Assembly: GCA_963848965.1 (NCBI GenBank)
Contig: CAWKFG010000004.1
Location: 576,001-640,000 of the forward strand
Length of the DNA stretch: 64,000 nucleotides
Direction of reading: 5' to 3'
From: an uncultured bacterium
Lineage (GTDB): Bacteria > Babelota > Babeliae > Babelales > Babelaceae
The notes beneath the pieces were generated by a model. The model was not told the DNA's origin. It did no database searches and saw nothing but the letters and a program-made list of their open reading frames with translations. The position numbers were made by a program, and so were the translations under genes. Each line of letters begins with the position of its first letter. Position 1 is the first letter of the stretch. This document shows positions 1 through 64,000 of this stretch, piece by piece.

Positions 1-780
1 CTGATCTTCTAGCCATTTATCTAATGCTTTGTTAAAGTTTGCATACTCGCTTTTTGGAAAGGCCTTTTTTAATGCATCAGCAAGACCCACTGCTGGATAA
101 TCTGGAAAATAAGGTTTAAGTAAATTAATTATTCCCTCTACATATGCCATACTAACCGGCTTCTTGATAGTAAACTTAACAAAAAGCTCAAGAGCTGATT
201 GTACAAAGCCAAAATCTTTTGCTACAGTATACCCTCTTGCTGGTCCTCCTAGTAAATAAGCTTCAAGATATTGAGGTATCCCTCCAAGAGCAATTTCTTC
301 ATCCGGAGTTAATCCTTTTTGACCAGCGCCTTCTTCTACCCATTTAGTAAACATTTTTGTAAAGTAGGGATATTGTTTAAATTTTTCTGCCATCTCAGTA
401 GTTATATAGGTACGTTCAAGACTTGGATACACTTCTTTAAACGCACTTACTATTGCATCAAACACAGAAGGCGTTGCAAGTGCCTCTTGAGCAATAATAG
501 GTTCTAAAAGATTAAGAAGAGCATCTAACTCAATGAGCACACTTTTAGTTCGCATCTCTCTAGGAGCCAATCCTTTTTCATACTGCTGAAGGATATCCGA
601 TAAATGGAATCTGATTGTTTCTGCTCTAAGTTCTAGAGGTAATCTTAAAAGAAAAGAAGGATCAAGCTCTTTAGGCTTTATAATACCAAGCTTTTCAAGA
701 CCCTTTTTAACTTTCCTCATACCAAAGAGTGAAAAGGGAGCGCTCCCTATAAAAATGAAGAGTAAAATTCTTTTATTCAT
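1..780 (-). CDS. Secreted hypothetical protein with N-terminal F-box-like motif (3' end runs off window)
   Basis: Not in ORF track; own translation from ATG at 780 (AGGAG upstream): MNKRILLFIFIGSAPFSLFG|MRKVKK...FLLRLPLELRAETIRFHL; appears to run to the window edge. Confidence 0.7.
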   Translation of the reverse strand, partial: MNKRILLFIFIGSAPFSLFGMRKVKKGLEKLGIIKPKELDPSFLLRLPLELRAETIRFHLSDILQQYEKGLAPREMRTKSVLIELDALLNLLEPIIAQEALATPSVFDAIVSAFKEVYPSLERTYITTEMAEKFKQYPYFTKMFTKWVEEGAGQKGLTPDEEIALGGIPQYLEAYLLGGPARGYTVAKDFGFVQSALELFVKFTIKKPVSMAYVEGIINLLKPYFPDYPAVGLADALKKAFPKSEYANFNKALDKWLEDQ

Positions 781-940
781 ACAATCTCCTTTAATGTAAC
801 TATTTATCCAATTAAAATAAGAATACTATAAAAGCAGTTATTATTTCAAGATTGTAAAATAATATACAATTATATGAAAATTACAGGTAAATTTACTCTG
901 GTAAATATTTTTTTAGATAATATCGTATAAGGAGCTATAT

Positions 941-980
941 CACTGAATAACTCCTGGCTAAAGCCAGTGGCTTTCTTGAT
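941..980 (-). mobile_element. IS200/IS605 right-end-like hairpin relic
   Basis: Minus strand reads CAAGAAAGCCACTGGCTTTAGCCAGGAGTTATTCAG, resembling the tnpB element right end at 62892-62925 (GAAGCC-hairpin-GTAGTTCAC). Confidence 0.45.
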
Positions 981-1020
981 CTTTAAGTAAAACATTTCTA
1001 GCAGTGATGTTTCTACGTAG

Positions 1021-1047
1021 AAAGGGCTCCCTTAAGGAGCCCTTTTT
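1021..1047. terminator. Intrinsic terminator-like hairpin after ftsZ
   Basis: AAAGGGCTCC-cttaa-GGAGCCCTTT with T/A runs. Confidence 0.75.
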
Positions 1048-5218: not shown

Positions 5219-8200
5219 TTATAAACCCGAAAGTTCTTCACTTGCAATTGGTCTTGCTGTTATTGGTGATGAAGCATTTAGTAACTGTTCAATTCGGTTA
5301 TACAATTCCTTTTGTTCTTTATCTTGAGAGCGTGCGCTCAATAGCCTTGCTCTATGCACTGGATCTTGCTTAAGGAATGCATTTTTTCTTCGCAGAGTAA
5401 AGAATAAAGCTAAATATCGAACAACTGGTACATGCCCTTGAGAGACTGCAAAAAGCAGAGCTTCTTGTAATACAGAAAGTTCTACTTGTTTTTCCAATAG
5501 CAGCCTCTTTACTTCATTTACATCTCCTTTTATTGCTGCAAGCTGCAACGGATTATCTAGTATAGTGCCAAGAGTCTCGATAAGTATTGGATCGGTATTG
5601 TCTACTAAAGCACCGTAATTTAAGAGCAATCGTACAATAGCTGTATGACCCTTTTTTACAGCGCTTTGCAAACTTTGTTCTAAACCATTAATACTATTGA
5701 TATCTGCAAGAGTCAAGAGAGCATGAACAACATCTGTATAGCCAAACGTTGCTGCAATGTGCATAGAGGTCTTTCCTTGCTGATTTTTAGCATTAAGAGA
5801 GGCTCCTTGCTTTAATGCTTGTCTAACTTGTTCAACGTCACCCATTGCTACGGCAGTAAGCAACTGCGCATCAAACATTGCTGCATCAAGCTGTGCTGGT
5901 ACTCCCCTACATAGTGGACATCTACTACCAGATTTTATCACAGTACTTACACAGTGTGGATGAAATACATGACCACACGGTAAAGCCATTAACTTTTCAC
6001 CCTGTTGGTATTCTTCAAGACAAATCGTACAGTTTTTTGCATCTTTGTTATCTTGGTTATTGCTCTTTGATACAGCAGGTGAACTGGCAAAATTTTCCGC
6101 CTTTTCTTGTGAGCTTCTTGGTTCTGCCTGAAAAGCTTTATGTGTGCGGATGCTCTTAGTATGTTCCCGCAGTACATGCTCTATGTATTTATACCGATCT
6201 TCCTCACCGCCATACGCCTGTGCGCGCTCTAATAATACTATGACATGACGCAAAGCAGTTACTTCAAGAAAATTACTTGCCCCTTGGTTTATAATAAGGG
6301 GTATCAAGTATTCAACAATATGACCATGTCCCTGTCCAATAGCAAGCATTAATGCCTCTTGTAAAACAAGATAGGAAGTTTGCGCTGTTGCCATTGCTTT
6401 TACCGTAGTATAATTGCCTAGCACTGAGGCCAAAAGTAATTCTTGCTTACCAAGTATTTCTTGTATTATTTCTATAACCAGAGAGTCAAAAACGTTTAAT
6501 TGTGCACCATGTTGCAATAACATTCGTATACTATCTAATCGCTTTTTTTCTAAAGCACGATGTAAAGGTGCTTGTCCCCATTGGTCTTGCAGATTAATTT
6601 TAATAAGCGGCTGTGCTAAAAGAACTTGCACAACGGGGTTATGCCCATGCCAAACAGCTATATGTAACGGGGTTGCACCATGATTATTGTGAGCGTTAAC
6701 ATCACTATGAGGAACTGCTAACAATGCTTGAACAATAGCTTTATGTCCCCAAGATGCAGCAAGCCAGAGTGCGGTTTCTCTATTACTATTTTGTGCTTGA
6801 ATATCTGCTCCATCAGCTAACGCCCGTTGCACTTCACGGACATCCCCTTGTTGAGCAGCTTGTAGAAGCCTTAAATTAGCTGATTCTTGAGAAGTTGAGA
6901 TCAGTGGCACTTGAGACTGTGATTTATTTTGAAAATTCTCTCTATCAGACTGCACGCTCTTAGTTGGCAATAAGTCTGTTTTTGTAATAGCTGTAAGCGT
7001 ACTCGATCCTACTGCAGGGCTTTCTTGGATCGATTGCTTTTCAATACTTGAAGAAACAGAAGGCATATCCCTTTCTAGAAGGCTCGCCTTTATTTGTGGC
7101 TCTTCGTGAATTTTTTGTATAAGAGGAACTAGGTCTATCAATAACTGTTCTATATGTTTATATTGTTCCTGCCTTTTTAATTTTCCTATATCTTGATAGA
7201 GCTTATCTTGATTGTGCTTTTCTTGTTTCAACAATTCTAACTTAGACTGAATTAATTTTAAGCGCGGATCTTTCTTTTTTTCTGACGACTCTTTAAAGAG
7301 GCCTTCCCCATCTCCACCGAACAGTTCCCCTTTACCCAAGGCATTCATCCTTTCAATTGTCTCCATCTCACTTTTTAATTTTTTTATACCCATTTCTAAT
7401 TTTTCAATACTATTTTTTAGTTTTTCTTGATAGCGTTGCTCTTCTGCTTTAGTCATAGTATATGTTGAAAGTAATTGTACATGGAACAACGCCTCTTGAT
7501 GAATAAAATCCTTTGCCTCTCGTTTTACCAGAAGAGGAACAAGGTATTCTATAACAGGAATATGTCTTTGCCCTATTGCATAAAGAAGCGCTTTTTGAAG
7601 GAGCCCACTATGTGTTTGTTCTGTAGCTAAAGCTTTTACTTGATCAACAGAACCAAGCACTGAGGCTAAGAAGAGTGGATGGGTACTAAAGAGCTTTTTC
7701 AAAGCTGGTATAACATTGTTATGGTCAGCAGGGCTGAGCAACGCTCCATGGCGTAATAGAAGTTGTACAAAACTCCATTTTTCCATTTTGACAGCCAAAG
7801 ACAAAGAGTCTGTTCCAATGCACATACCAGGAGTAGCAAGCAGAGCCTTAACAATTCTTTCATAACCTTTATTAACAGCCACATCTACTAGCGCTGTTTG
7901 CGTACTCGTACTATCAATATCCGGAATGGCAAGAAATGCCTTAACAATTCCTTCATAACCTTGCGCTGTAGCTAAAAACAATGCTGTAGATTTTTCTTTA
8001 TTTAGAGCATTAACATTAATACCGGGAGCAGCAAGGAGAGCTTTTACAATAGTTTCATGTCCATTTTGAGCAGCTAAATGTAATGGTGTATAGCCCTCTT
8101 TACTTTGAGCATTAATATCAATAGTAGGAGCTGCAAGGTCATCTAATGAATTAACAGCCCTATCATGAATAGCAAGAATACTTCTCACAACTTTCTCATA

Positions 8201-9445
8201 ACCATATTGAGCTGCATAGCGTAATATTTCCTCTACTCTGCTATCTTGAAAATTACTAAGAAAGAGCGATTCTGGCTTTGCGTTATCCAGTTTATTACTA
8301 TTGATTTCAGCGTATTCTAAAAACATTTTTATCGTATTTATATCACCACTTTGTACCGCAAATTGCCAAGGAGTCCATCCATGCTTATCTTTACCATTAA
8401 CCTTAATAGAGGGAACAGCAAGAAGTGCTTTCACTATACCTTCATATTTTATACCGGCCAATCCTGAACCCCTTGCCGCCAGGTGCAAAAGGCTCTGTCC
8501 ATCATTATTTTCAGCATTAACCTCGATTGCTGGTACTGCAAGAAGTACTTTCATTATACTTTCATAATTATGGCTATAGACTGAACTGCTTACTACCTGA
8601 TGCAAAGGAGTATTTCCATAGTTATTTTTAGTATTAACCTTGATCGTAGGAACAGCTAAAAGTGCTTTCATTACATCTTCTCGCTTTAGCGATACTGCAT
8701 TATGCAAGGGTGTACTCCCATAGCAATCTTGAACATTAACTTCAATAGAAGGTATTTCAAGAAGAGCTCTCACTATTCCTTCATCTCTACGTGATGCATT
8801 ATGCAAAGGAGTACTACCACCCTTATCTTGAAGATTAACGTTGATAGTTGGCACTGCAAGAAGCGCCCTCGCTATGCCTTCATCTTCGCTCGCTGCATAA
8901 TGCAGGGGAGTACTACCACGCTTATCTTGAAGATTAACGTTGATAGTTGGCACTGCAAGAAGAGCTCTCACTATACCTTCATCACCCTTTAATACTGCAT
9001 CATGCAAAGGAGTCCTTCCTTCTATATCTTGAACATTAACATCGATAGTGGGAGCAGCAAGAAGAGCTTTCACTAAACTCGCCGCTTTATTAGAGTAACA
9101 TGCTATATGTAGAGGAGTCCGCCCCCTATCCTCAACATTAACATCTGCACCAGATTTAATTAAATCTTGGATAATAGAGAGGTCACCATCATCTTGTACT
9201 TCATACATAAGCAACTCGCCAAGTTTCTGAGCGCTCAGTTGCTTCGACTCAATCTTATCTTTAATACTTTTTTTACGCGTCTCCTCATATTTTTTTAGCT
9301 CCTCTTCGCTCGGCCCTTTCTCAGACGGCCTGTAAGACATAGCCCTCCACGGTACTTGATGAGCAGAACGCACTTTCTCTCTAAACATGCCATTAATAAA
9401 GGCGCTTGACACAAATAAAGTAAAAAGTAGCAATTTTCTAAGCAT
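5219..9445 (-). CDS. Secreted multi-ankyrin protein with coiled coil and internal RING-H2 finger
   Basis: Signal peptide, many TPLH repeats, CTICLEEY...PCGHVFHPHC...CPLC at about 5906-6031. Confidence 0.9.
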   Translation of the reverse strand: MLRKLLLFTLFVSSAFINGMFREKVRSAHQVPWRAMSYRPSEKGPSEEELKKYEETRKKSIKDKIESKQLSAQKLGELLMYEVQDDGDLSIIQDLIKSGADVNVEDRGRTPLHIACYSNKAASLVKALLAAPTIDVNVQDIEGRTPLHDAVLKGDEGIVRALLAVPTINVNLQDKRGSTPLHYAASEDEGIARALLAVPTINVNLQDKGGSTPLHNASRRDEGIVRALLEIPSIEVNVQDCYGSTPLHNAVSLKREDVMKALLAVPTIKVNTKNNYGNTPLHQVVSSSVYSHNYESIMKVLLAVPAIEVNAENNDGQSLLHLAARGSGLAGIKYEGIVKALLAVPSIKVNGKDKHGWTPWQFAVQSGDINTIKMFLEYAEINSNKLDNAKPESLFLSNFQDSRVEEILRYAAQYGYEKVVRSILAIHDRAVNSLDDLAAPTIDINAQSKEGYTPLHLAAQNGHETIVKALLAAPGINVNALNKEKSTALFLATAQGYEGIVKAFLAIPDIDSTSTQTALVDVAVNKGYERIVKALLATPGMCIGTDSLSLAVKMEKWSFVQLLLRHGALLSPADHNNVIPALKKLFSTHPLFLASVLGSVDQVKALATEQTHSGLLQKALLYAIGQRHIPVIEYLVPLLVKREAKDFIHQEALFHVQLLSTYTMTKAEEQRYQEKLKNSIEKLEMGIKKLKSEMETIERMNALGKGELFGGDGEGLFKESSEKKKDPRLKLIQSKLELLKQEKHNQDKLYQDIGKLKRQEQYKHIEQLLIDLVPLIQKIHEEPQIKASLLERDMPSVSSSIEKQSIQESPAVGSSTLTAITKTDLLPTKSVQSDRENFQNKSQSQVPLISTSQESANLRLLQAAQQGDVREVQRALADGADIQAQNSNRETALWLAASWGHKAIVQALLAVPHSDVNAHNNHGATPLHIAVWHGHNPVVQVLLAQPLIKINLQDQWGQAPLHRALEKKRLDSIRMLLQHGAQLNVFDSLVIEIIQEILGKQELLLASVLGNYTTVKAMATAQTSYLVLQEALMLAIGQGHGHIVEYLIPLIINQGASNFLEVTALRHVIVLLERAQAYGGEEDRYKYIEHVLREHTKSIRTHKAFQAEPRSSQEKAENFASSPAVSKSNNQDNKDAKNCTICLEEYQQGEKLMALPCGHVFHPHCVSTVIKSGSRCPLCRGVPAQLDAAMFDAQLLTAVAMGDVEQVRQALKQGASLNAKNQQGKTSMHIAATFGYTDVVHALLTLADINSINGLEQSLQSAVKKGHTAIVRLLLNYGALVDNTDPILIETLGTILDNPLQLAAIKGDVNEVKRLLLEKQVELSVLQEALLFAVSQGHVPVVRYLALFFTLRRKNAFLKQDPVHRARLLSARSQDKEQKELYNRIEQLLNASSPITARPIASEELSGL
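8746..9070 (-). repeat. About 99-bp tandem ankyrin-coding repeats, recently duplicated
   Basis: Near-identical units, e.g. GTACTACCAC.CTTATCTTGAAGATTAACGTTGATAGTTGGCACTGCAAGAAG at about 8811 and 8910. Confidence 0.8.
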
Positions 9446-10138: not shown

Positions 10139-10576
10139 TTACTGCGCAAAAACTTGTAAAATTTCTGGATCCTGTGTAAGAGAAACTGGGCTTTCTTCAA
10201 AGTCATTACGTTGTAAAGGATCAGCACCTGCATCTAAAAGCATTTTGATAATTTCTTTATCTCCATATTTTACTGCCCCATGTAACGCCGAGTCACCGCT
10301 ATTGAGATTCTTAGCTTTTACATCAGCGCCGGCTTTTATAAGCATAGAAAGAATTTCTTTTTTGCCTCTGCTAGCAGCTTCGTATACAGCTGTTCTAAAA
10401 CCTGTAGGCCAAGTATCTGGTGAAAGACCGCCAGAAAGTAGACTAGCCATATCTTTAACCCTGTTTTCTGCAATAGCCCACCACATTTGTTGAGGAAGGT
10501 TATTAACATCCATACCATACGATAAGAATGAGAGTGAGCACAGTAGAATGAGCGCATATAAAGATCTAGTAACCAT
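10139..10576 (-). CDS. Small secreted ankyrin-repeat protein
   Basis: Signal ...LSYG|MD, 2-3 ankyrin repeats (SALHGAV, GADP). Confidence 0.85.
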   Translation of the reverse strand: MVTRSLYALILLCSLSFLSYGMDVNNLPQQMWWAIAENRVKDMASLLSGGLSPDTWPTGFRTAVYEAASRGKKEILSMLIKAGADVKAKNLNSGDSALHGAVKYGDKEIIKMLLDAGADPLQRNDFEESPVSLTQDPEILQVFAQ

Positions 10577-10649: not shown

Positions 10650-11561
10650 TTATGCTAGGGTATTCTGCTTTTCTTTGATCAGGTTAGTGAGCACACTTAT
10701 AGCATGACTTAAAAATCGGCAATGTTTTTCAAGCAATTGAGCACTTTGTGGTAGACGATCAACTGTAGAATCAGATTTTACTGCATATATGATGAGACCA
10801 GCTAAACATACTATACTTGTTGAGAAAAATGTGGCAAAAGAGGAAGTAACATAAGGTTCATAACGGGCATCTCCGCCTGCCCATATCATTGTTGCAATCA
10901 TAACAATAAATAAGAGTGGTACGGGAGAAAAAACTGTACCAAGTGTATAAAAATCTTTTTTATCGTGCCCCGCTATATGTTTTTTAAGTACTATGCGACA
11001 AGCATCAAGCTGATTATAAAGCTTTTGGAGATTATTTTTCAAAGTAAGTATATCTTCTGTTGATAATTGTAAGCGAGTACGAAGCATATCATGAGTAACT
11101 GGTCCTACTATTGGGCTCTCTAATACCTGACTCCAATAAGCAGGTTTTACTTGAAGTAAATTATGTAAAAGAGCAGCAAAAGGAGCATAATCTCTCTTTC
11201 TCAACGTTGTTTCAAAAGGTCTTTCTTTTGTATACTCTGTCAGAGCTTCTTGTAGTTTTCTTGAAAGTTCTGTATGTGATTTTGCAGTTTTAAAATGTGC
11301 TACTATCATCTCCAGTCTCTGCGTATCAGCAGGAAAGATATGCTCTTGTTCCATAAAGCTCTCTACAATCTTTTGCGCTATTTCTGGAGTTAATCCATAG
11401 AGCCTTACAAGGTAGTTAAGAGCTGGATCATTTCCTTCAAGATATTCACAAATTTTAACCATAATATCTTTTGGCAAAGAGGAAACCTTGGGTTCTTTTT
11501 CCATAGCCAGAAGAGAAAAGCCTATGCTTATGGCACATAAGCTTTTTTGCCATAATTTCAT
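10650..11561 (-). CDS. Secreted F-box-like protein with two TM helices (paralog of 12912-13793)
   Basis: SLLA|MEKE, SSLPKDIMVKICEYL, coiled coil, hydrophobic hairpin. Confidence 0.7.
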   Translation of the reverse strand: MKLWQKSLCAISIGFSLLAMEKEPKVSSLPKDIMVKICEYLEGNDPALNYLVRLYGLTPEIAQKIVESFMEQEHIFPADTQRLEMIVAHFKTAKSHTELSRKLQEALTEYTKERPFETTLRKRDYAPFAALLHNLLQVKPAYWSQVLESPIVGPVTHDMLRTRLQLSTEDILTLKNNLQKLYNQLDACRIVLKKHIAGHDKKDFYTLGTVFSPVPLLFIVMIATMIWAGGDARYEPYVTSSFATFFSTSIVCLAGLIIYAVKSDSTVDRLPQSAQLLEKHCRFLSHAISVLTNLIKEKQNTLA

Positions 11562-11723
11562 AAAAAACTCCTAAATTTATTTTTTATTATAAATTTATAT
11601 TAGCACTTTATAGAAATAAAACAAGCTCTTTTTCCTTATTTTCTTAGGCCTTTTGCGCTCTTTTTCTTTTTCCCTTATCTTAGGAGTTACTTATTAAAAT
11701 TATAATTACAAAGGAACGTGACC

Positions 11724-12908
11724 ATGAAAGCACAATTAAGCACCCTCGGATTCATAGTCTGTAGTGCACTAGCTTTTATACAAGCAATGGAGAGCATGCC
11801 TCGTATAAACCCATGTTATCCAGCAAATGAGTATAGATATACTATTAGCATTGCCGGTATTTCTTGCAAAGATTTCAAGGATAAGGTACGAGGCTGTGTC
11901 TTAGGGGCAGCTTTAGGTGATATGCTGGGAGCGCCAACAGAATTTATCTCTTCACGTGAAGCTATTAATAAAGTATATCCACCCTCTGGCATTACAGGTA
12001 TTGAGAGCTTTAAGGAAAAAGACTTTACAAAGGATGCTTCTGGCAAAAAAGTAGCTCCCTATACTGACGATACTGCCATGAGTATTCTTGTTTTAGAAAC
12101 TATTACATGTTTTAGCAGATCGCAGTTTAACCCTCCATCACAATGGAACATAAATGATGCTATGCATGATCTTGCATTGAGCTTTGTAAAAGATATGAAT
12201 AACCCTGCCGGTTGGGCACAACAAAGGCGAGCTCCTGGGCTTACCTGTTTACGTAATGTACAAGAGCTTGCCACACGGTTTGAAGCAATGGCCAGGAAGC
12301 ACAATAAAGATCCTCGTTTTTGGGCAGTTGGCAAACCAACAGAAGGTGGTTGCGGATCTGTTATGCGAGCACATCCCTTTGGCCTTATTTTTGCAGGAAA
12401 TATAGAAAAAGCAATAGAATGGGCAGTAGAACACTCCAAAATTACTCATGGAGCTCCTATGGCTTTAGCCGCCTGTGCCGCAATGGCATGCGGTGTCGCT
12501 CATGCTCTAAGAAACGAAAAGCCAGAAGCAGTTGCTCAAAGAATGTATGAAGTTGCAAAAAAATATGATAGTTATACAGCACAGCTTATAGAACGAGCAA
12601 TAGAATATGCCTATGATGCTCGCAAGCCAAGTGATGAAGTATTTAAAGAGTTTCAAGGATGGGCAGCTCATGAAGCTATTGCAGCTGCTACTTATGCATT
12701 TTTAAAGCATCCAGATGATCTGAAAAAAGCTATTCTCTTAGGAGTTAATACCCCTGGTGATAGCGATAGTATTGCTTCAATGGCAGGAGCTCTTGTAGGC
12801 GCTCGCATTGGCGCACAACAGATACCACAGGAATGGCTTGAAGTACTTGAAGGGAGTCAAAGACTTATACAGCTTGCTGATAATGTTGCAAATTTATATA
12901 AGAAATAG
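11724..12908 (+). CDS. Secreted ADP-ribosylglycohydrolase (DraG/ARH family)
   Basis: GAALGDMLG, YTDDT, GSVMR, ITHG, GDSDS motifs; signal FIQA|ME. Confidence 0.9.
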   Translation: MKAQLSTLGFIVCSALAFIQAMESMPRINPCYPANEYRYTISIAGISCKDFKDKVRGCVLGAALGDMLGAPTEFISSREAINKVYPPSGITGIESFKEKDFTKDASGKKVAPYTDDTAMSILVLETITCFSRSQFNPPSQWNINDAMHDLALSFVKDMNNPAGWAQQRRAPGLTCLRNVQELATRFEAMARKHNKDPRFWAVGKPTEGGCGSVMRAHPFGLIFAGNIEKAIEWAVEHSKITHGAPMALAACAAMACGVAHALRNEKPEAVAQRMYEVAKKYDSYTAQLIERAIEYAYDARKPSDEVFKEFQGWAAHEAIAAATYAFLKHPDDLKKAILLGVNTPGDSDSIASMAGALVGARIGAQQIPQEWLEVLEGSQRLIQLADNVANLYKK

Positions 12909-51735: not shown

Positions 51736-51741
51736 TGTGCT

Positions 51742-52191
51742 TTATCCTTCACGTGATACTGGTGAACGGATTTGAGCGTTTCCTGTCGAACCGATAGAGT
51801 AGAGTTCATATGGTGGACGAGTCCCTTTCGGATTCACTTGATATACAAACTCCTGGCTCCAGCCATCTTTAAGATCATTTTCATTTGCAAGTGGTTCGCC
51901 CCATTTTCTTTGGAGTTTTGCATCAGAAGGACCTTCTACAAGCTCTCTGAGTTCGGTAGGATATTGCCCCAAACGTAAGTTATATGATTCTAAAGCACTA
52001 TCGAGTGTAGCAAGTTTTGAATCTGTAGCAGTTGCCTTAGCACGTTGTAAAAATGCAAAGCCTCCAAAAGCAACAGCTGCTAATACACCGATAATTAAAA
52101 TCACAATCATAATTTCAATTAAACTGAAACCATTTTTGTGATTTCTTCTTTTCTGTAAGCGTTCTTGTGAACACGTAAGAGAAATAGCCAT
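51742..52191 (-). CDS. gspG: Type II secretion major pseudopilin GspG
   Basis: NG|FSLIEIM, LESY..RLGQYP, KDGW..FVY, YELYSIG. Confidence 0.85.
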   Translation of the reverse strand: MAISLTCSQERLQKRRNHKNGFSLIEIMIVILIIGVLAAVAFGGFAFLQRAKATATDSKLATLDSALESYNLRLGQYPTELRELVEGPSDAKLQRKWGEPLANENDLKDGWSQEFVYQVNPKGTRPPYELYSIGSTGNAQIRSPVSREG

Positions 52192-52218
52192 GAAATTCCT
52201 TTCTTAAATAAATGGTAT

Positions 52219-53442
52219 CTACTTCAATTTGTCTACCATACTTGTAAGATTTTGTATAGGAAGCATTACTGCAGCTATAACAAATCCTACAACAACAAAC
52301 ATAATAACGAGCATTACAGGGCCTAATAAAGATGAAAGCGTATCTGCAGTTTCTCGTAAATCATCTTCAAAGTACCGTGCTACTGTTAAAAGCATTTTAT
52401 CTAATTGACCACTCTGTTCTCCTGTATTAATGAGGTAGGTTGCAACAGGAGGAAATAATCCTGTCTCTTTCAAGTAGTGAGCAATCTTACCTTGTTTAAT
52501 AATATTTTCACGTGCCTTTTCAAGAGAATTGGTAAGCACTTTATTATCTACAATTTTTACTACAATACCTAACGCTTCTGCTAAATTTACACCACCTTCT
52601 ATAAGCATACCAAGAGTACTACTAAATTGCACAATAGCATTGGTACGAGCAAAATAACCAATAAGCGGTAACCGTAATTTAATTTTATCAAGAGTATAAG
52701 CGCCTGAAGGAGTAGACTTCCAAAAACGGAACGCTAGTATAAGCGTAATAATAATGAGCCCTAAAGCAATATAATGATTCAATATAAAGTTAGAAACAGC
52801 AAGTAATGCTCTGGTTACAAAAGGCAGAGCGATATTTTGCCCTTCAAACACCGTTGCAATTTGAGGAACTACAAATGTAAGAAGCCCTACCACGACAAGA
52901 AGAATAACTCCCAGCTGGAAAAGAGGGTACCGCAATGCTCCTCGTACTTTCTTACGAATTTCTTCTGTTCGCTCTAAAAAGTCAGTAAGACGTTCTAAAA
53001 TAACTTCTAGCCTCCCAGTTGCTTCACCCGCTCGTACTAATTGCACATAAATAGTATCAAATACATGAGGATACTTTTGCAAACCATCAGCAAGAGAACG
53101 CCCCTCACGAAGATTATCGCGCAATACTATAACAATATTTTTTAATGTTCCTTCTGTCTGTTCAATTAAAAGCTCAAGAGCTTGCACAAGTGGTATCCCT
53201 GACCGTAGTAGTACTCCTAATTGTTTGGTAAAGAATACTTTATCCTTAAGACTTACACCACGTTGAAAAATACGTTTATAAAAAGGAACAGAGGTCGCTT
53301 GAGTGTGCGAAAGTTCTATTTTAGTAGGAAATATACCCATACGAGAAAGCTGTTCACGCGCCCCTTGAGTGGTTGAAGCATCAACATATCCTGTTACTCG
53401 TTTTCCTTCACGTGAAATTGCTTGGTAAAAATATAATGCCAT
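52219..53442 (-). CDS. gspF: Type II secretion inner-membrane platform GspF/PilC
   Basis: LRSGIPL, AGEATGRL, ALRYP, GEQSGQLD. Confidence 0.92.
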   Translation of the reverse strand: MALYFYQAISREGKRVTGYVDASTTQGAREQLSRMGIFPTKIELSHTQATSVPFYKRIFQRGVSLKDKVFFTKQLGVLLRSGIPLVQALELLIEQTEGTLKNIVIVLRDNLREGRSLADGLQKYPHVFDTIYVQLVRAGEATGRLEVILERLTDFLERTEEIRKKVRGALRYPLFQLGVILLVVVGLLTFVVPQIATVFEGQNIALPFVTRALLAVSNFILNHYIALGLIIITLILAFRFWKSTPSGAYTLDKIKLRLPLIGYFARTNAIVQFSSTLGMLIEGGVNLAEALGIVVKIVDNKVLTNSLEKARENIIKQGKIAHYLKETGLFPPVATYLINTGEQSGQLDKMLLTVARYFEDDLRETADTLSSLLGPVMLVIMFVVVGFVIAAVMLPIQNLTSMVDKLK

Positions 53443-57493: not shown

Positions 57494-58246
57494 TTACCGT
57501 AATGCCTTAATAATTTCCTGATAGTTTTGTGCTTGTACTTTAGCACCTTTAGATTGTACAGCCTTTAATTGCTTCTCTGCTAGACTTAAAGCAGTATTAC
57601 CATTTTTATCTCTCAAATCTTTTCGAGCTCCATGATTAAGTAAAAATTTTACTGTATCTACATCTGCCTCAAATGCAGCACTCATTAACGGAGTAGTTTC
57701 ATCGTATTCAACAGCACCATTAACATCGACACCCGCTTTAAGAAGATTTTCTAAAGTTTTATACAAAAGAGAGTTAAGCACTTGCCTCTCTTGCTCTTTC
57801 GATTTTGATTCATATTCTTCTGGATGTCGCATACGCCTATTTGCACTTTCTCCTAATTGAGTTACAATTTTAAAAAATTGAGATTGCGCTTTTCTTCTTA
57901 TTGCTTCATCTTCACTTATTTGTTTTGTGAGCCACTCTGTAACCTCTGGTATATCTAAAGATGCTGCAATCTGAGAAGCTTCTTCCTTACTAACCTCTGA
58001 TGCAGTAGAAATAACTGCCCCAATATTCTTTAAAAAATCAGGGTGACTTCTATAACTTCTCAATGGATCTAAAATTGTATAGTTAAGATTTAACAAACGT
58101 GCACCTGGTTGATCTACTCTTGCTTGAGGATACTTTTGCATCTCAGCCTTAAGCTTTTCTGAAAGTAAGTTTAAAAAGCTTTTTTGCTCCATACCCTGAA
58201 GCCCCGTACAACCTAAAAAAATAAAAAAGCCTATCTTTATATACAT
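57494..58246 (-). CDS. Secreted protein with degenerate F-box-like N-terminus and C-terminal ankyrin repeats
   Basis: GLQG|MEQK, SFLNLLSEKLKAEM, TPLMSAA, TALSLA. Confidence 0.8.
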   Translation of the reverse strand: MYIKIGFFIFLGCTGLQGMEQKSFLNLLSEKLKAEMQKYPQARVDQPGARLLNLNYTILDPLRSYRSHPDFLKNIGAVISTASEVSKEEASQIAASLDIPEVTEWLTKQISEDEAIRRKAQSQFFKIVTQLGESANRRMRHPEEYESKSKEQERQVLNSLLYKTLENLLKAGVDVNGAVEYDETTPLMSAAFEADVDTVKFLLNHGARKDLRDKNGNTALSLAEKQLKAVQSKGAKVQAQNYQEIIKALR

Positions 58247-58465
58247 ACCCCTCTCCTTCATTTAATTTTTGTCATTATATCTAATATTAAGTATATATTA
58301 TTTTTAATTGAAAAATAAATTATTGAGACAAATAAAATTAAAAATTCTTGGATTTTATCTTAAATAGAAATGATACAAAAACTTAAAAAGTGTAATAAGT
58401 CTCCAAGCAGTAGTAGAGATGCAGGTATAACCTTTATGTAAAAGAAGATTCAAAGCTCTTATTGT

Positions 58466-59428
58466 CTAAACATCTTTTTTGAGAAGCTCGATAATCTTTT
58501 GATATTTCTTTATTACCGCCATAAAATCTAGATTTTCAGCTGGTATTGCAGGAAGGACAGCAGCCATAAGCTGAGCTTCTTTAAGACGCAGCTCTGCTAT
58601 ATCTAAAGCAGTATGATCACTATTATTTTTCAAATCTTTTCGAGCTCCATATTTGAGCAAAAATCGTACAGTAGTAGAATCGCAATACCCTGTCGCTCTT
58701 ATTAAAGAAGTTACCCTCGTAGCCATTGTACGATCATCTTCTTGCGAGTTAATGTCAACACCAGACTTAAGAAGATTTTCTAAAGTTGTATATAAAAGTT
58801 TCTCAAGAGCAAATCTCTTTTGTTTTTCATCAGCTGTCTCTTGCTCGTGCGCTCTAATTTTGTTCCACGTATGTGAGTATTTACTTTGCCCTAAATTATC
58901 GCCTACAATGCAATAAAACTCGTAGTTGGCGTCTCTCCTCGTGACTATGTTTTCAATAATTATCTGTTTTTTAAGCCACTCAGTAACCGCAGGTATATCT
59001 AAGGCCGCCGCAATTCGAGGAATAAACATACTTTCACCTTGAGATAGTATACAAATAACAACCTCAATACTCTTTAAGAAAATTGGCAAATCAAAATAAA
59101 GCCTTAAGGGACTTAAAATAAATTCTTCTAGTCGCATGAAAGATGGTAGAACATCAGAGACTTTGAATATGGAAGCTGATAAAATGTCATACTCTTTCTC
59201 TTGACTAAACTTAGATTGCTTTTCCAATTGAATAAGACTTTTCACAATAAAAAAGATCAATTCTTTTTGAATATTTGGAGGAAGCTGGTCTAAACGAGTA
59301 GGCGCATATTTTTTTAATTCAATCACCAAATCTTGAGGCAAAAGATCCAAAAAGCTTTCTGCTTTCTTTTGCATTCCCTGAAGCCATGTATAGCTTAAAA
59401 GAGTAAGTAACACTAACTTTATATGCAT
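58466..59428 (-). CDS. Paralog of 57494 with two F-box-like motifs and ankyrin C-terminus
   Basis: WLQG|MQ, FLDLLPQDLVIEL, LDQLPPNIQKELIFFI; shared LDIP.VTEWL, LENLLK.GVD. Confidence 0.8.
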   Translation of the reverse strand: MHIKLVLLTLLSYTWLQGMQKKAESFLDLLPQDLVIELKKYAPTRLDQLPPNIQKELIFFIVKSLIQLEKQSKFSQEKEYDILSASIFKVSDVLPSFMRLEEFILSPLRLYFDLPIFLKSIEVVICILSQGESMFIPRIAAALDIPAVTEWLKKQIIIENIVTRRDANYEFYCIVGDNLGQSKYSHTWNKIRAHEQETADEKQKRFALEKLLYTTLENLLKSGVDINSQEDDRTMATRVTSLIRATGYCDSTTVRFLLKYGARKDLKNNSDHTALDIAELRLKEAQLMAAVLPAIPAENLDFMAVIKKYQKIIELLKKDV

Positions 59429-59431
59429 ATG

Positions 59432-60517
59432 TTACTTACGATTATAAAATGGCTGTATAAATCGTGAGTAAACAAATTTAATATACGGTATATGACATCG
59501 CACAGGCCAGTTTATAGAATCACACACAATCATAACGGGGTTTCTGTCACGTAGTTTTACTACTGAGATAAGTATATAGTGTGATCCATTGGTAGTCTTA
59601 TAATCCTTAGAAGGGTCTCCTACTGTCTTACTAGCCCATCCTGATATACAAGATACAAAGTGAAGAGCATACGGCACATTACGCTGTACATGATCACGGA
59701 ACGTATTTAAAAGCCGATTACACATGATAGGTCCTATATCTAATATACCAGCTCCCTCGCCACCCCTTACTAAAAGTTCCGCACCTGGACCAAACTCGTT
59801 TATCTCAAGCTGTAAACCATGCTCGCGACCTAAGTGGTATCCTAGATAATAAAGAGTTGTATCAGTTCTACCTGGAACAAATAATTGTAATGTAGGATGT
59901 TGAGCTAAAATAGTAAGATGTTCAAACGTTGGAAGGTTCTGCCTTCCTGGTGCTTGCAATCTTACCACTCCAATGCCTATTTGATGAAGGATAAATTGAT
60001 GTAACTGCCAATTAATAACTGCATCATGAACATTCGGCTGTATATGAGTGGTAATATGCTGTAGCATAGTACGCGGAGTAAGTATCGGATTGGCACCTGC
60101 TAGTATCCCCTTCATTGTAGCAGCATTAACCAGTGACCAGTAGCCACAACTCCATATATCTTGTTGAGGAAAAACTTGAAAATAATGAATACGTGTTGGA
60201 TCAATTTCAGGATCACCATACAAATCTGCTGTATCATTTAAATCAACCACAGCACCAAAAAAGAGCTTTAATTGCGCTCTCTTTATCACTTCTTGTACAC
60301 GAACGCGGGAGCAACTCTTATTATTTTGATAAAGCTCTTTAACAGCTTCTCCTAACTCAATACCTATTTGGTTAACAGCTGGAGCCGGAATGCGGGGCTC
60401 TCGTGCTACTACCTCTTGAAGAGTCCTGTCTGCAAGCTCGAAAGCCTCGGTTATATTTATTTCTTGTGAAGGTGCCAAAAATAAGATAGGCGTAAGAAAT
60501 GGTTTAAAAAGAAACAT
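59432..60517 (-). CDS. Putative papain-fold Cys protease (same motif set as 34094-35815)
   Basis: QQDIWSCGYWSLVN, SHYILI, VCDSIN. Confidence 0.55.
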   Translation of the reverse strand: MFLFKPFLTPILFLAPSQEINITEAFELADRTLQEVVAREPRIPAPAVNQIGIELGEAVKELYQNNKSCSRVRVQEVIKRAQLKLFFGAVVDLNDTADLYGDPEIDPTRIHYFQVFPQQDIWSCGYWSLVNAATMKGILAGANPILTPRTMLQHITTHIQPNVHDAVINWQLHQFILHQIGIGVVRLQAPGRQNLPTFEHLTILAQHPTLQLFVPGRTDTTLYYLGYHLGREHGLQLEINEFGPGAELLVRGGEGAGILDIGPIMCNRLLNTFRDHVQRNVPYALHFVSCISGWASKTVGDPSKDYKTTNGSHYILISVVKLRDRNPVMIVCDSINWPVRCHIPYIKFVYSRFIQPFYNRK

Positions 60518-61609: not shown

Positions 61610-62925
61610 CAAAAAATAAACGAGAATTCTCCTACTTCTGTAAGTAGGAGATGAATCGTAAGAAACATTAACACCCTTTGCAGTATTCTTTTCATGAGGT
61701 ATATTTATAGTTATAGAGCATTATCATAATCATTATAGGAGAGGCAATCTATAATGAAAACGTATAACAAGACCTATAAGATGAGGTTACTGCCTAACAA
61801 AGAGCAAAAAAGCTTCTTTGCTCAAACTTTTGGTTGTGTACGTTTTATTTGGAATAAACTTCTTGAACATGCTAACAATTCCTATAAAGAGCATGGTAAA
61901 GCGCACTTTATTACGCCAGCCTCTTTCAAACAAGAATTCTCTTGGCTTAAAGAAGTAGATAGCTTGGCATTAGCTAATGTTTGGCTTTTTCTTAAACAGG
62001 CATTTACTTCTTACTTTGAAGGTATTACCCAGTATCCTCGCTTTAAAAGAAAAGATACTGCAAAACAAAGCTATACAACAAATAATCAAGAAGCATCACA
62101 AGCTATTCGTATTGAAGGTACCTTTATCCGACTGCCAAAAGTAGGCTTTGTTAAGATAATTATGCATAGGCAGATAAAGCCTCATGAAAAGATAAAAAGA
62201 TGTACGGTAACACAAACAGCATCTGGTAATTATTATATAAGCATCACTGTTGAAGGTATATCTTACCAAGAGGTACTACCAATAGCTTTAGATAAAGTAC
62301 TAGGATTAGATTATTCAATGACTTCTTTATACGTAAGTAGTGAGGGTGAGAGAGCCAATTACCCAAGATACTACCGTAAAGCAGAAGAGAAACTTGTAAA
62401 GCTGTGCCAATCTCTTTCTCGTAAAGTAAAAGGAAGTAAAAACTGGCATAAAGCACGCCGTAAGTTAGCCATATTTTATGAGTATATAGCTTTTCTCCGC
62501 CATGATTTCTTGCATAAGTTAAGCTTTATGTTAGCCAAAAAGTATGATGCTATCATTATAGAAGACTTAGATATGCATGCTATGAGTCAAGCATTAAACT
62601 TTGGTAAATCGGTAGGGGACAACGGCTGGGGTAAGTTTGTTACACTGTTAGGCTATAAGCTTGCAGAAAGAGGCAAACAGCTTATAAAGATAGACAAATG
62701 GTTTCCTTCATCAAAGATGTGTTCTTCATGCGGTAGTATAAAAGAAAGTCTAGCGTTATCAGAAAGATGGTATAATTGCCAGCATTGCGGGTACTCTCAA
62801 GACAGAGATATCAATGCTGCTAGAAATATTAGAACCGTGGGGATCACGGGGATAGCCTAATCAATATCCTGAGGTTGCTTAGGAGTTCTTAGGAAGCCAC
62901 CACCTCTTAGGTGGAGGTAGTTCAC
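61610..62925 (+). mobile_element. Non-autonomous IS200/IS605 (IS1341-like) element
   Basis: TTTAA at 61605-61609, left hairpin TCTCCTACTT-ctgt-AAGTAGGAGA (61628-61651), right hairpin and TTCAC at 62921-62925. Confidence 0.8.
61754..62860 (+). CDS. tnpB: TnpB RNA-guided endonuclease, canonical D-E-D
   Basis: HTH FGCVRFIWN, GLDYS, IIIEDL, FPSSKMC, DRDINAARNI. Confidence 0.95.
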   Translation: MKTYNKTYKMRLLPNKEQKSFFAQTFGCVRFIWNKLLEHANNSYKEHGKAHFITPASFKQEFSWLKEVDSLALANVWLFLKQAFTSYFEGITQYPRFKRKDTAKQSYTTNNQEASQAIRIEGTFIRLPKVGFVKIIMHRQIKPHEKIKRCTVTQTASGNYYISITVEGISYQEVLPIALDKVLGLDYSMTSLYVSSEGERANYPRYYRKAEEKLVKLCQSLSRKVKGSKNWHKARRKLAIFYEYIAFLRHDFLHKLSFMLAKKYDAIIIEDLDMHAMSQALNFGKSVGDNGWGKFVTLLGYKLAERGKQLIKIDKWFPSSKMCSSCGSIKESLALSERWYNCQHCGYSQDRDINAARNIRTVGITGIA

Positions 62926-62945
62926 ACAGACTTGTGTGCAAGTTG
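62820..62945 (+). ncRNA. TnpB omega-RNA 3' scaffold plus flank-derived guide (5' limit approximate)
   Basis: Nested stems CCTAA/TTAGG, TCCTGAG/CTTAGGA, CCACCT/AGGTGG ending TTCAC; guide would start ACAGACTTGTGTGC. Confidence 0.65.
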
Positions 62946-63050
62946 TAGAAATTTTGATTCTGGATCTTTATCTGCCTGAGCAATTTTAAGAGTAAGTAAG
63001 CTATCAGCAGCAACCAAAATCAAAAAAATAATAGTTATTTTAAGCTTCAT
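62922..63050 (-). pseudogene. Secreted-protein gene truncated by the IS
   Basis: MKLKITIIFLILVAADSLLTLKIAQADKDPESKFLQLAHKSV*; TGA supplied by the IS right end. Confidence 0.5.
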
Positions 63051-63554
63051 ACTATTTCCTTGATTTTTTGTAATAATTTCTTATCTAAAAGACTTATATA
63101 TCTAAGATACAAAAAATAATAGTTTTTCTGCAATATTTTTTACCACTTTTTCTTCATAAAGCATATTCTTCCAAGAAAAAGCCTTTTAAGAGCTATAATT
63201 GTGGTATTTTCTTTATCTTTAGAATATAACATCCTACTTTTACTAGTGCTCTTATGAAAACTGATGCTATACACAAAAGCAGTAACATTGCAGACACAGT
63301 TGAGCTGAAAGAAGAACCCATTTATTGATCGTAGAACTTTCCAGGTATGCCCATTATAGCAAAAGACCATAAAGATTAGAAAATTTCCTGGTTATTGAAG
63401 CTCTCTTTGTAAACTAAGAGCAAAGTGAGGTGATACCATAAACAATAATTGTTCTTGCAAACATTTGTTCATATGGCAATTGTAGCTTGAACTCGAACGC
63501 CTACATAAGGAGTTACTGGGCTTAACCGTTTTTACGTTGTTAAGCCCTTAAATT

Positions 63555-64000
63555 TTACTCGTTATCTTCACGCTCTAAGGCACTAAAAGAGATAAACTTT
63601 AAAGCTTCTTTTTGTATTTCGTTTGGCACTTTAGACCAATAGGATGCTGGATCTTCCTTTAAGGCTTTTAGCAGTTTTGAAATTTCCATTAACTTTTTTA
63701 CATCATTAATTGGTACTGCGTAAGACATATTTTGACAAGCATGAAAACCACCGACTGAGATAAACTGCGTTACAAACATGTTAACTCCTATTACTCTTCT
63801 CCATGCATCAATAAGTGGCCCACCACCATTACCAGGAAAAATGTGTGCTGTACTTGATATATACTCATTCCCATTAATAAACTCTCGGCCTGCTATTACT
63901 CCTGGTATACTATGCACACTCCGTAATCCAAGTGCGTATCCTAGAGCCGTTACATTTTGAGCACGAGTAATTTGATCAGAGTCTCCAAGCTCTAAATGAG
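63555..64000 (-). CDS. C-terminal part of trypsin/HtrA-like domain protein with Ser->Gly at the nucleophile and F-box-like tail (5' end outside window)
   Basis: LELGDSD...ALGYALG...G.IAG...FPGNGGGPL...VIGVN, then YWSKVPNEIQKEALKFI. Confidence 0.75.
   Translation of the reverse strand, partial: HLELGDSDQITRAQNVTALGYALGLRSVHSIPGVIAGREFINGNEYISSTAHIFPGNGGGPLIDAWRRVIGVNMFVTQFISVGGFHACQNMSYAVPINDVKKLMEISKLLKALKEDPASYWSKVPNEIQKEALKFISFSALEREDNE

Follow-up and report, generated by a model that had tools for sequence, protein, structure and literature searches.

Results

The locus and its genes

The window, by which we mean the whole 64,000-nucleotide stretch analyzed here, belongs to the genome of an uncultured bacterium of the family Babelaceae (assembly GCA_963848965.1, contig CAWKFG010000004.1, positions 576,001 to 640,000), and it encodes several relatives of eukaryotic ubiquitin-system proteins that begin with hydrophobic, Sec-type leaders. 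For genome-wide results the window is G000:C4:576001-640000, where G000 is the label of this genome's assembly and C1 and C4 are contigs of it. The assembly consists of 1,726,235 bases in five contigs with 37% GC, is 88.7% complete and contains no 16S rRNA gene. Searching a species-representative genome collection with the GspF protein of the window gave 51 related loci, the closest of which (72-75% identity) are labeled Candidatus Dependentiae or uncultured bacterium; identity is 49-66% to candidate division TM6, Candidatus Babeliales and Vermiphilus pyriformis, and about 30-35% to Omnitrophota. The window is probably an ordinary chromosome stretch of an obligate protist parasite of the Dependentiae (TM6, Babeliales-type) that possesses many eukaryote-like proteins with Sec leaders. 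Much of it is housekeeping: ftsZ, ftsA, alanine racemase, TyrRS, a class-I aminoacyl-tRNA synthetase, ybeY, thymidine kinase, a radA-like gene and SpoU methylases are found here, with ankyrin proteins and other eukaryote-like genes interspersed among them.

An earlier interpretation made from the letters and open reading frames (ORFs) of the window, the sequence-only reading, had proposed an exported toolkit for hijacking ubiquitin, made up of a RING ligase, F-box and SOCS-box adaptors and deubiquitinase-like proteases, near a type II secretion system (T2SS) cluster. The 58 ORFs of at least 100 amino acids in the window were scanned with Pfam at E up to 0.01, and the ORFs claimed in that reading were rescanned at E up to 10; genome-wide counts use a crude set of 1481 ORFs. 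The set to be discussed would consist of a RING-H2 ankyrin protein, two permuted Ulp1/C48-like peptidases, two membrane-anchored degenerate F-box-like proteins and several ankyrin proteins with a 'YLxxLPxEL' motif. The principal features are listed here, with a slash before the terminal Met of a leader, and each ORF is called by its first coordinate.

5219..9445, complementary strand: ankyrin RING-H2 protein of 1408 amino acids, leader NG/M, RING at residues 1138-1180 (Pfam)
34094..35815, complementary strand: cysteine peptidase, permuted Ulp1/C48-like, leader YG/M (24 homologues, AlphaFold2 model)
59432..60517, complementary strand: second cysteine peptidase, 'SCGYWSL' at the Cys and 'HYILI...CDS' at the His/Asp (BLASTP, jackhmmer)
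35942..36631, complementary strand: small predicted membrane protein adjoining a peptidase, with paralogues at 39157-39405 and 41618-42226, both on the complementary strand
10650..11561, complementary strand: family B protein, leader LA/M, F-box-like 'LPKDIMVKICEYLEGND', helical region, two predicted C-terminal membrane helices (hhalign)
12912..13793, complementary strand: family B paralogue, leader FS/M, F-box-like 'LPKDAILLILECLEGDD', one predicted membrane helix (hhalign)
58466..59428, complementary strand: family A protein, leader QG/M, 'SFLDLLPQDLVIELKKY', a second 'LPPNIQKEL', degenerate ankyrin repeats (family hidden Markov model [HMM] E 3e-6, positions 2-112)
57494..58261, complementary strand: weak family A member, leader QG/M, C-terminal ankyrin repeats (HMM E 1.4e-3; Ank_2 E 2.2e-9)
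1..780, complementary strand: weak family A member, leader FG/M and then 'FLLRLPLELR' (HMM E 8.5e-3 for the full form)

An ankyrin protein with a RING-H2 finger

The sequence-only reading took ORF 5219 to encode an ankyrin-RING-H2 protein, and the searches bear this out. The RING matches zf-RING_2 (PF13639) with E 7.9e-14, its 52.1 bits (58.6 when the whole genome was searched) exceeding the cut-off of 27.3, and the ankyrin repeats match Ank_2 with E 4.1e-113. Eight zinc ligands are found in the RING, 'CTICLEEYQQGEKLMALPCGHVFHPHCVSTVIKSGSRCPLC', with the spacing C-x2-C ... C-x-H-x2-H-x2-C ... C-x2-C. Against PDB sequences the RING region gave 54 matches at E up to 0.001, the best being RLIM (E 1.4e-13), followed by a plant RING, RNF4, Arkadia, RNF165, RNF13 and RNF38. 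Alignment with RLIM pairs all eight zinc ligands, and three other positions also agree: the Ile behind the first Cys pair, the 'CPLC' Pro and the Arg that follows the last Cys. The C3H2C3 spacing is the same as in the eukaryotic RING-H2 ligases RLIM, Arkadia, RNF38 and plant ATL; unlike in those ligases, ankyrin repeats surround the RING of 5219, and the protein is bacterial and begins with a Sec leader. The 5219 protein is likely to act as an E3 ligase, with an E2 recruited from the host.

RING fingers are widespread in the phylum: zf-RING_2 exceeds its cut-off in 56 of the 121 phylum genomes searched, and none of the 14 control genomes has such a match. This genome has eight matches at E up to 0.001, compared with the one RING protein named for Babela.

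Other ubiquitin-type enzymes are encoded elsewhere in the genome. A leader-bearing protein of 314 amino acids (L131, G000:C1:573443-574387, complementary strand) has a RING and then two stretches matching IBR (E 3.4e-17), a layout like that of the RBR-type ubiquitin ligases of the Ariadne/Parkin kind. Two USP/UCH-type ubiquitin hydrolases, L128 (G000:C4:252835-254148, forward strand; E 1.2e-36) and L129 (G000:C1:503140-504462, complementary strand; E 3.6e-30), both have N-terminal leaders and parallel the secreted C19 hydrolases of Babela.

Two cysteine peptidases of a permuted Ulp1/C48-like family

Two proteases with a Q-C/H/N(D) arrangement and a Josephin label had been claimed for the window, at 34094 and 59432. 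The proteases exist and are homologous to one another; the label has no profile support, and the two are better described as circularly permuted Ulp1/C48-like. BLASTP aligns them over 72 residues around 'SCGY' with E 2e-5, and a jackhmmer search within the genome gathers a family of eight ORFs that joins 59432 with 34094, the latter at E 1.3e-18. The putative catalytic residues of 34094 are Cys112, His448 and Asn467, with position 35875 taken as the start of the ORF. In both peptidases the His is followed by an aromatic residue ('HW' and 'HY'), and we take a residue of this kind directly after the catalytic His to be a feature of permuted Ulp1-like peptidases. ORF 59432 has a hydrophobic N-terminus that does not end in Met.

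With a full HMMER search, 24 homologues of 34094 were identified among 1.84 billion representatives. Three of the 24 exceed the Pfam Peptidase_C48 (Ulp1) cut-off of 20.7 bits (P0014 with 28.6, P0016 with 26.1 and P0012 with 21.0), a fourth lies just below it, and eight of the 24 contain an AAA ATPase domain. By itself 34094 gives a weak match to ElaD/SseL-like_C (E 0.0057, 16.9 bits against a cut-off of 27) and to no other Pfam family. In the alignment of the homologues the Gln, Cys, Tyr, His and Trp are nearly invariant and the Ser in 'DS' is invariant; the Cys stands about 335 residues ahead of the His (C53 and H389-W390 in fragment numbering), which is the permuted order. For 59432 the homologue search returned the protein itself and one other that is 75% identical. 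In the ESM Atlas 34094 had no match and 59432 had weak leads of the Peptidase_C39 kind, scoring 0.88-0.90, and phmmer against PDB sequences found nothing for 34094 and one irrelevant match for 59432. An AlphaFold2 model of 59432 from a two-row alignment was unusable (predicted local distance difference test [pLDDT] 32.5). Neither peptidase has a Pfam Josephin match at E up to 10.

The AlphaFold2 model of 34094 residues 60-500 has a pLDDT of 79.5 and a predicted template modeling score of 0.78. Among the weak matches that Foldseek returned, OtDUB ranks first, and SseL, CidB and the monkeypox I7L protease are among the other top rows, all of them Ulp1-like. Exhaustive structural alignment of the model gave 11 chains with Z of at least 5 and 0 with Z of 8 or more. 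The core aligns with an OTU deubiquitinase (Z 6.0), the BpJOS clippase (5.9), SnOTU (5.5), Lpg2529 (5.3), tegument-like deubiquitinases (5.3), PcJOS (5.2), M48 (5.2), USPL1 (5.1), PaJOS (4.9) and Josephin-2 (4.8). From the model, we interpret 34094 as a cysteine peptidase with the papain order of residues, and its closest structural neighbors are deubiquitinases of several classes. BTG/Tob antiproliferative domains account for the best matches of the whole model; they align with the insert between Cys and His (model residues 106-287) over 106-111 residues (Z 7.1-7.5, root-mean-square deviation 3.4-3.8).

Both peptidases are assigned, from their sequence relationships, to the circularly permuted Ulp1/C48-like family described in Babela. 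The assignment draws on the AAA-bearing paralogues with leaders and on the adjoining membrane proteins, both of which are known from the published description: Babela encodes proteins combining an AAA ATPase with a circularly permuted Ulp1 domain that have atypical signal peptides, with a membrane-protein family encoded alongside (PMC4378268). In this genome the AAA-bearing paralogues are L124-L126, two of which have Met-ending leaders and a 'SCGYHAL' Cys motif. The membrane protein encoded at 35942 adjoins a peptidase; jackhmmer from it found six ORFs in the genome at E up to 1e-3, including 39157 and 41618, and the three paralogues in the window are leader-bearing. Babela likewise pairs a membrane-protein family with its Ulp1-like genes (PMC4378268). 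In contrast to the AAA-fused peptidases of Babela, 34094 and 59432 have no AAA domain, and the AAA-fused paralogues lie elsewhere in this genome. The Babela paper called the permuted form Babela-only (PMC4378268); the 24 homologues indicate a wider family. The predicted activity of 34094 and 59432 would be the removal of ubiquitin, SUMO or another ubiquitin-like modifier.

Two further groups of peptidases bear comparison with 34094. The CE-clan effectors SseL, OtDUB, CidB, XopD and RickCE resemble it in the His/Asp strand region, with weak structural matches to model residues 307-434 (XopD Z 4.5, CidB 4.4, OtDUB 4.4, RickCE 4.1); unlike in the CE clan, the Cys of 34094 precedes the His/Asp in a papain-like permuted order. 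The bacterial Josephin-like deubiquitinases and clippases described in bioRxiv 10.1101/2024.07.24.604956 have the same Cys...His...Asn/Asp order as 34094; OTU, tegument-like and USP structures score in the same Z range, so that the comparison points to a shared fold class and to no single family.

F-box-like proteins of family B

Five leader-bearing proteins of the window (1-780, 10650, 12912, 57494 and 58466) had been proposed to carry N-terminal F-box-like motifs. The leaders are present in all five by a hydropathy heuristic; the F-box stands for 10650 and 12912, and for 58466, 57494 and 1-780 the link is weak. An L-P-x-D/E sequence follows the leader in 1-780, 10650, 12912 and 58466, whereas 57494 has 'LLSEKL', with no Pro.

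ORFs 10650 and 12912, 44% identical over the N-terminus, belong with three paralogues to family B, the five members of which form alignment A4. This was compared with alignment A5, consisting of 12 F-box-like domains from the phylum. Hhalign gave a probability of 93% (E 3.4e-7, 39 columns), whereas in the controls no more than 0.7% was seen with 30 column shuffles and 0.1% with the alignment reversed. The two alignments have 'LPxD..xxIxxYLEGN' in common, and the usual 'V-C-K-x-W' helix is replaced. The Pfam F-box-like score of 10650 is 13.3 bits (E 0.149). Comparing the family B profile with the PDB gave eight matches, none of them an F-box protein, and neither single-protein nor A4-profile searches found relatives of family B outside this genome. 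The F-box assignment of 10650 and 12912 holds only by profile-profile comparison.

Across the phylum, F-box-like matches at E up to 0.001 occur in 22 of 121 genomes, 14 of which are over the cut-off, compared with 0 of 14 controls. In the 12 phylum F-box-like ORFs that were read, the F-box comes after a hydrophobic leader, which is Met-ending in 7 of the 12. To judge from these ORFs, an export signal with an N-terminal F-box is a real layout in Dependentiae. Skp1 (PF01466) was found in 0 of 261 phylum genomes, and any F-box partner must therefore be the host's.

The 'YLxxLPxEL' module of family A

The pattern LPx[DE][LIV] within residues 16-90 occurs in 60 of the 1481 ORFs, compared with a mean of 14.7 in 50 shuffles (standard deviation 3.8, maximum 25). 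Family A is defined by '[ST]YLxxLPxELxxELxxF' after the leader, and its HMM, built from 35 paralogues, matches 53 of the 1481 ORFs at E up to 1e-3. In the window 58466 (Pfam Ank_2 E 2.9e-4) is a member and 57494 and 1-780 are weak members; the full ORF of the last is G000:C4:575962-576780, of 272 amino acids, and its one Pfam match is UBM (E 0.027). Elsewhere in the genome an ankyrin protein (L056, G000:C4:102151-103836, complementary strand) has the family A motif at its extreme C-terminus ('NYLQVLPQELIKELFLFL'), and the module thus occurs as a tail too. PRANC is likewise a tail in poxvirus ankyrin proteins.

The sequence link between the family of 58466, 57494 and 1-780 and the F-box is weak, and it is possible, although we think the balance lies against it, that family A, and perhaps family B too, is a lineage-specific N-terminal module and not a Skp1-binding F-box. 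Such a module could instead serve as a sorting or translocation signal read after cleavage, in a position like that of PEXEL or RxLR in eukaryotic parasites, or as a type II recognition element. The motif stands 5-30 residues behind the leader in most members, as this explanation would have it, and the usual 'V-C-K-x-W' third helix is missing; none of the 22 PDB matches of the family A profile at E up to 10 is an F-box protein, no Pfam F-box-like match in this genome exceeds the cut-off, and hhalign of family A against A5 gives a probability of 25% over 24 columns, which cover the first helix only. The family HMM reaches just 1 of the 12 phylum F-box-like ORFs. That one link is a good one, however: the ORF, L048, comes from a genome of the same family, exceeds the Pfam F-box-like cut-off with 24.4 bits and matches the family A HMM with E 1.1e-6 over HMM positions 2-69. 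Moreover, the hhalign probability rises to 85% once the family A alignment is trimmed to the motif, and substrate receptors are built in this way, with an N-terminal adaptor ahead of ankyrin or WD40 repeats.

The proposed SOCS box and C-terminal tail

Two further adaptor motifs of the sequence-only reading did not survive profile searches. They concern the following ORFs.

28185..29873, forward strand: ankyrin protein, leader YA/M, N-terminal motif 'PSLFTLCQRQAITVL' (Ank families alone in Pfam at E up to 10)
63555..64000, complementary strand: C-terminal part of a trypsin-like serine peptidase, tail 'KVPNEIQKEALKFIS' (full ORF C4:639555-640340, Trypsin_2 E 7.7e-20)

The 28185 protein had been assigned a SOCS or BC box, and it does carry 'SLFTLCQRQA', which fits the BC-box pattern. 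The regular expression [STP][LM]xxxCxxx[LIVA] matches 15 ORFs in the genome against 12.9 in shuffles, which is chance level. SOCS_box (PF07525) was found neither in 28185 nor in the genome, and over the cut-off in 0 of 121 phylum genomes. A profile of four 28185-like N-termini (alignment A6) found no SOCS, Elongin or VHL chain in the PDB, and its probability against the phylum F-box set was 0.7%, that is, unrelated. On the Pfam, genome, phylum and PDB-profile searches together with the shuffle test, the SOCS or BC box of this protein is rejected as unsupported. Two leader-bearing WD40 proteins, L053 (G000:C1:349325-350683, complementary strand) and L055 (G000:C4:858775-860235, complementary strand), have a 28185-like N-terminal 'SL/PL...C' helix; judged by sequence, their layout resembles that of a substrate receptor, and no adaptor family was recognized in them.

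The F-box-like tail proposed for 63555 is unsupported: PRANC matches it with E 0.03-0.05 and 14-15 bits, far below the cut-off of 25.8, and the family A HMM does not match it at E up to 10. The full ORF has an ordinary leader that does not end in Met.

Leaders that end in methionine

Leaders were called by the hydropathy heuristic on crude ORFs, and 546 of the 1481 are signal-like. In the window, N-terminal hydrophobic leaders are found on 1-780, 10650, 12912, 57494, 58466, 5219, 10139, 11718, 24065, 28185, 34094 and 44348. Of 545 signal-like ORFs, 132 have Met immediately ahead of the first charged residue that follows the hydrophobic core; the background frequency is 1.8%. Under a looser rule 201 of 696 leader-bearing ORFs end in [G/A/S/C/T]-Met, about 14% of the crude ORF set. 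Position -1 in these 201 leaders is A in 73, G in 60, S in 46, C in 12 and T in 10, position -3 is most often L, and the residue after the Met is Glu in 119.

Met-ending leaders are associated with ankyrin repeats, being found on 76 of 103 leader-bearing ankyrin ORFs (74%) and on 125 of 593 others (21%), with an odds ratio of 10.5 and a Fisher P of 5.7e-25 that is overstated by the non-independence of paralogues. In the window the class consists of 1-780, 5219, 10139, 10650, 11718, 12912, 14954, 24065, 28185, 34094, 44348, 57494 and 58466, of which 14954 is an Hsp20-like ORF. The hydrolases, the NUDIX protein and the trypsin-like peptidase of the window have ordinary leaders that do not end in Met. 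Similar Met-ending leaders are found at other Dependentiae loci.

Shine-Dalgarno-like motifs precede 68% of leader ATGs, 1% of inner Met codons and 11% of random positions. The leader is translated, since such motifs precede its ATG, and use of the inner Met as a second translation start is ruled out by their rarity there. A second signal peptidase dedicated to the class was also considered and rejected: the genome encodes one S26 peptidase, signal peptidase I.

It is a speculative and rather doubtful proposition that Dependentiae mark host-directed proteins with an export-leader class of their own, L-x-[A/G/S] followed by Met-Glu. If it is true, the proteins would begin with Met-Glu after signal-peptidase cleavage and so resemble newly synthesized cytosolic proteins of eukaryotes, and such a start could shield the acidic, Lys-rich beginning of an effector from the N-end-rule machinery of the host. 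The class could also merely record the joining of eukaryote-like genes to a leader. The portions of the Babela, Chromulinavorax and TM6 papers available for this analysis do not describe Met-ending leaders; no search was aimed at them, and we do not claim that they are unpublished.

The secretion apparatus

The window contains a row of T2SS or pilus-type genes, listed here.

48676..53442, complementary strand: T2SS/pilus-type gene row (Pfam, NCBIfam)
52219-53442, complementary strand: gspF (Pfam T2SSF E 4.2e-57; NCBIfam GspF 350 bits against a cut-off of 424)
51742-52191, complementary strand: gspG (Pfam T2SSG E 1.7e-15; NCBIfam GspG 75.8 against 88.85)
51253-51735, 50828-51253 and 49842-50831, complementary strand: three pseudopilin-like ORFs (prepilin N_methyl motif only)
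48676-49833, complementary strand: ORF called 'gspK' by position alone (no Pfam or NCBIfam match)

Of the genes gspF to gspK claimed earlier, gspF and gspG are confirmed at family level, three are recognizable by the prepilin motif only (50828 having no NCBIfam family match), and 'gspK' is unmatched. The sequence-only reading had suggested searching the whole genome for the missing T2SS genes and for other secretion systems. Elsewhere in the genome three secretins and two T2SSE (GspE-type) ATPases are encoded, and the markers VirB4, VirD4, FHIPEP and VipB of the type IV, type III and type VI systems were not found in the 88.7%-complete assembly. That reading had also drawn attention to the clustering of exported proteins near the T2SS genes. 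Although gspF and gspG do lie in the window, their nearness is weak evidence and carries little weight, because leader-tagged effector-like ORFs are spread genome-wide; the window has 13 of them against 7.5 expected per 64 kb (Poisson P 0.04).

Discussion

Ubiquitin-system mimics and their proposed export route

The sequences support the presence of exported mimics of the ubiquitin system in this bacterium, namely a RING-H2 ligase and peptidases related to deubiquitinases and Ulp in the window and two USP hydrolases, further RINGs and a RING-IBR protein elsewhere, nearly all of them leader-bearing. The exported toolkit proposed earlier was thus right in outline as regards the RING protein, the peptidases, the leaders and the T2SS components, and unsupported in its SOCS box, C-terminal tail and Josephin label. 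In the model that we consider here the Sec translocon would move these proteins through the inner membrane, the genome's one signal peptidase I would remove the leader, and the type II system or outer-membrane vesicles would carry the proteins past the outer membrane. If the bacterium lives in the host cytoplasm, as its cultured relatives do, then crossing the outer membrane would place the proteins in the host cytosol, and no injection device would be needed because the bacterium would lie free in the cytoplasm. Leader cleavage, dependence on the T2SS, arrival in the host cytosol and all of the enzymatic and binding activities are what we infer in this model.

Several observations weigh against it. 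Cleavage is only inferred for leaders that were called by a heuristic. The RING of 5219 has a Val at the position of an RLIM Trp that we take to be an E2 contact. At E up to 10, Pfam gave none of the nine claimed ORFs a match to F-box (PF00646), F-box-like (PF12937), SOCS_box or Josephin, and in the genome as a whole F-box and F-box-like score at best 13.8 and 16.3 bits, both below the cut-offs, with equal noise in control genomes. All five family B proteins have one to three predicted membrane helices near the C-terminus (residues 204-222 and 240-258 in 10650, 229-247 in 12912). After Sec export such helices should anchor the proteins in the bacterial inner membrane, where there is no Skp1, and they make free delivery of 10650 and 12912 doubtful. 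As for the 34094 peptidase, it has Asn where the consensus of its family is Asp, Foldseek found no match to its model at E up to 0.001, and structural Z scores below 8 are modest and may reflect merely a common arrangement. The incompleteness of the assembly leaves room for a missed secretion system, and two TolC-like outer-membrane factors make a type I route possible for other proteins.

The T2SS-like genes might build a type IV pilus, with export past the outer membrane left to vesicles or some other route, and we regard this as unlikely. GspF scores nearly equally with PilC models, and both GspF and GspG fall under the NCBIfam equivalog cut-offs; the TM6 comparative paper leaves the choice between T2SS and type IV pilus undecided (PMC4776705), and vesicles budding from Chromulinavorax have been observed (PMC6561590). 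This genome nevertheless possesses three secretins and a GspE-type ATPase, the authors of the Babela paper report type II as the only secretion system detected (PMC4378268), and type II substrates of Legionella are reported to reach the host cytosol (PMC5478897). It seems still harder to credit that the leader-tagged proteins act in the bacterial envelope or at its surface and never in the host cytosol, the leaders being periplasmic signals or uncleaved anchors. The membrane helices of family B would suit such a role, the exported ORFs of the window include plain hydrolases, a NUDIX protein and a trypsin-like peptidase, and secretion is here deduced from sequence. Yet RING, USP, RING-IBR, C2H2 and ankyrin domains have, by established knowledge, their partners only in the eukaryotic cytosol or nucleus, the absence of Skp1 from the 261 phylum genomes makes the partner of an F-box a host protein, and Met-ending leaders are tied to ankyrin proteins (76 of 103 versus 125 of 593). 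Babela and Chromulinavorax, moreover, are reported in the host cytoplasm, and secretion is inferred by their authors (PMC4378268, PMC6561590). Export to the host cytosol through Sec and then a type II system or vesicles is the interpretation that we consider probable.

Comparison with known systems

The closest parallel is Babela massiliensis. Its genome is described as encoding an F-box protein, a RING protein, secreted C19 hydrolases and permuted Ulp1 peptidases, with type II the sole secretion system detected, and export by Sec and type II was proposed for it in 2015 by Pagnier et al. (PMC4378268). The route that the sequence-only reading called unusual for cytosolic effectors had therefore already been put forward in that paper. 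The phylum is common to Babela and this genome, as are signal peptides on most ankyrin proteins, RING proteins, C19 (USP) hydrolases, AAA-fused permuted Ulp1/C48 peptidases with signal peptides and the detection of type II as the sole secretion system. Babela has an F-box protein, whereas this genome has none over the Pfam cut-off. In Chromulinavorax, Deeg et al. (2019) report signal peptides on 44% of coding sequences and on 78% of ankyrin proteins, and the bacterium is in the host cytoplasm by 3 h (PMC6561590). T2SS genes are described as core to TM6 genomes (PMC4776705).

Another comparison is with AnkB of Legionella pneumophila, an F-box and ankyrin effector of an amoeba-dwelling bacterium (PMC4259488), which the window proteins resemble in having an N-terminal F-box-type module followed by ankyrin repeats. 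AnkB is injected by the Dot/Icm type IV system, whereas the window proteins have Sec leaders. AnkB is also described as a bona fide F-box protein (PMC4259488), a description that sets it apart from the window proteins, which fall under the Pfam thresholds.

The model proposed for Babela would extend to an uncultured lineage of soil or water that exports ubiquitin-system proteins by Sec and type II with no injection machinery. RING fingers prove to be common in the phylum, and the permuted Ulp1-like peptidase, once called Babela-only, has relatives in public data. The ankyrin-linked class of Met-ending leaders and the large 'YLxxLPxEL' family may go beyond the literature consulted here. On the speculative reading in which the Met-ending leaders mark host-directed proteins, the 53-member module directly behind the leader would be either a stripped-down F-box that can still dock to host SCF or a host-targeting signal that acts after cleavage.

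Other genes of the window

The remaining eukaryote-like ORFs with Met-ending leaders in the window include the following.

10139..10576, complementary strand: small ankyrin protein of 145 amino acids, leader YG/M (Pfam Ank E 3.9e-14)
11718..12908, forward strand: ADP-ribosylglycohydrolase, leader QA/M, between two family B genes (Pfam ADP_ribosyl_GH E 2.7e-65)
24065..24799, complementary strand: C2H2 zinc-finger protein, leader YG/M (Pfam zf-C2H2_4 E 2e-19)
44348..47026, forward strand: ankyrin protein of 892 amino acids, leader FG/M (Pfam Ank_2 E 1.4e-100)

The 11718 protein has Tri1/DraG-like matches in NCBIfam that lie below the cut-offs, and its domain suggests a predicted exported eraser of ADP-ribosylation. 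The zinc fingers of 24065 are a eukaryote-like domain that is not part of the ubiquitin theme; in a leader-bearing protein elsewhere in the genome (L127, G000:C1:330542-332623, forward strand), eukaryotic-type C2H2 zinc fingers are fused to a 59432-like peptidase domain.

Two IS605-type OrfB/TnpB genes, at 37685-38902 (complementary strand) and 61754-62860 (forward strand), have Cas12f1-like TNB and OrfB_IS605 domains. There are two likely toxin-antitoxin pairs, one at 4372-4954 (forward strand), where a small ORF overlaps a HicB-family gene, and one at 40524-41274 (complementary strand), consisting of a Gp49-like gene and an HTH_37 gene. Tandem alpha/beta-hydrolase paralogues at 21770-22786 and 23018-23992, both on the forward strand, share an identical leader and first residues ('ILALCAFSCLSAEQSNEQQGIPLEQEVSTRS'), and this identity suggests a recent duplication.

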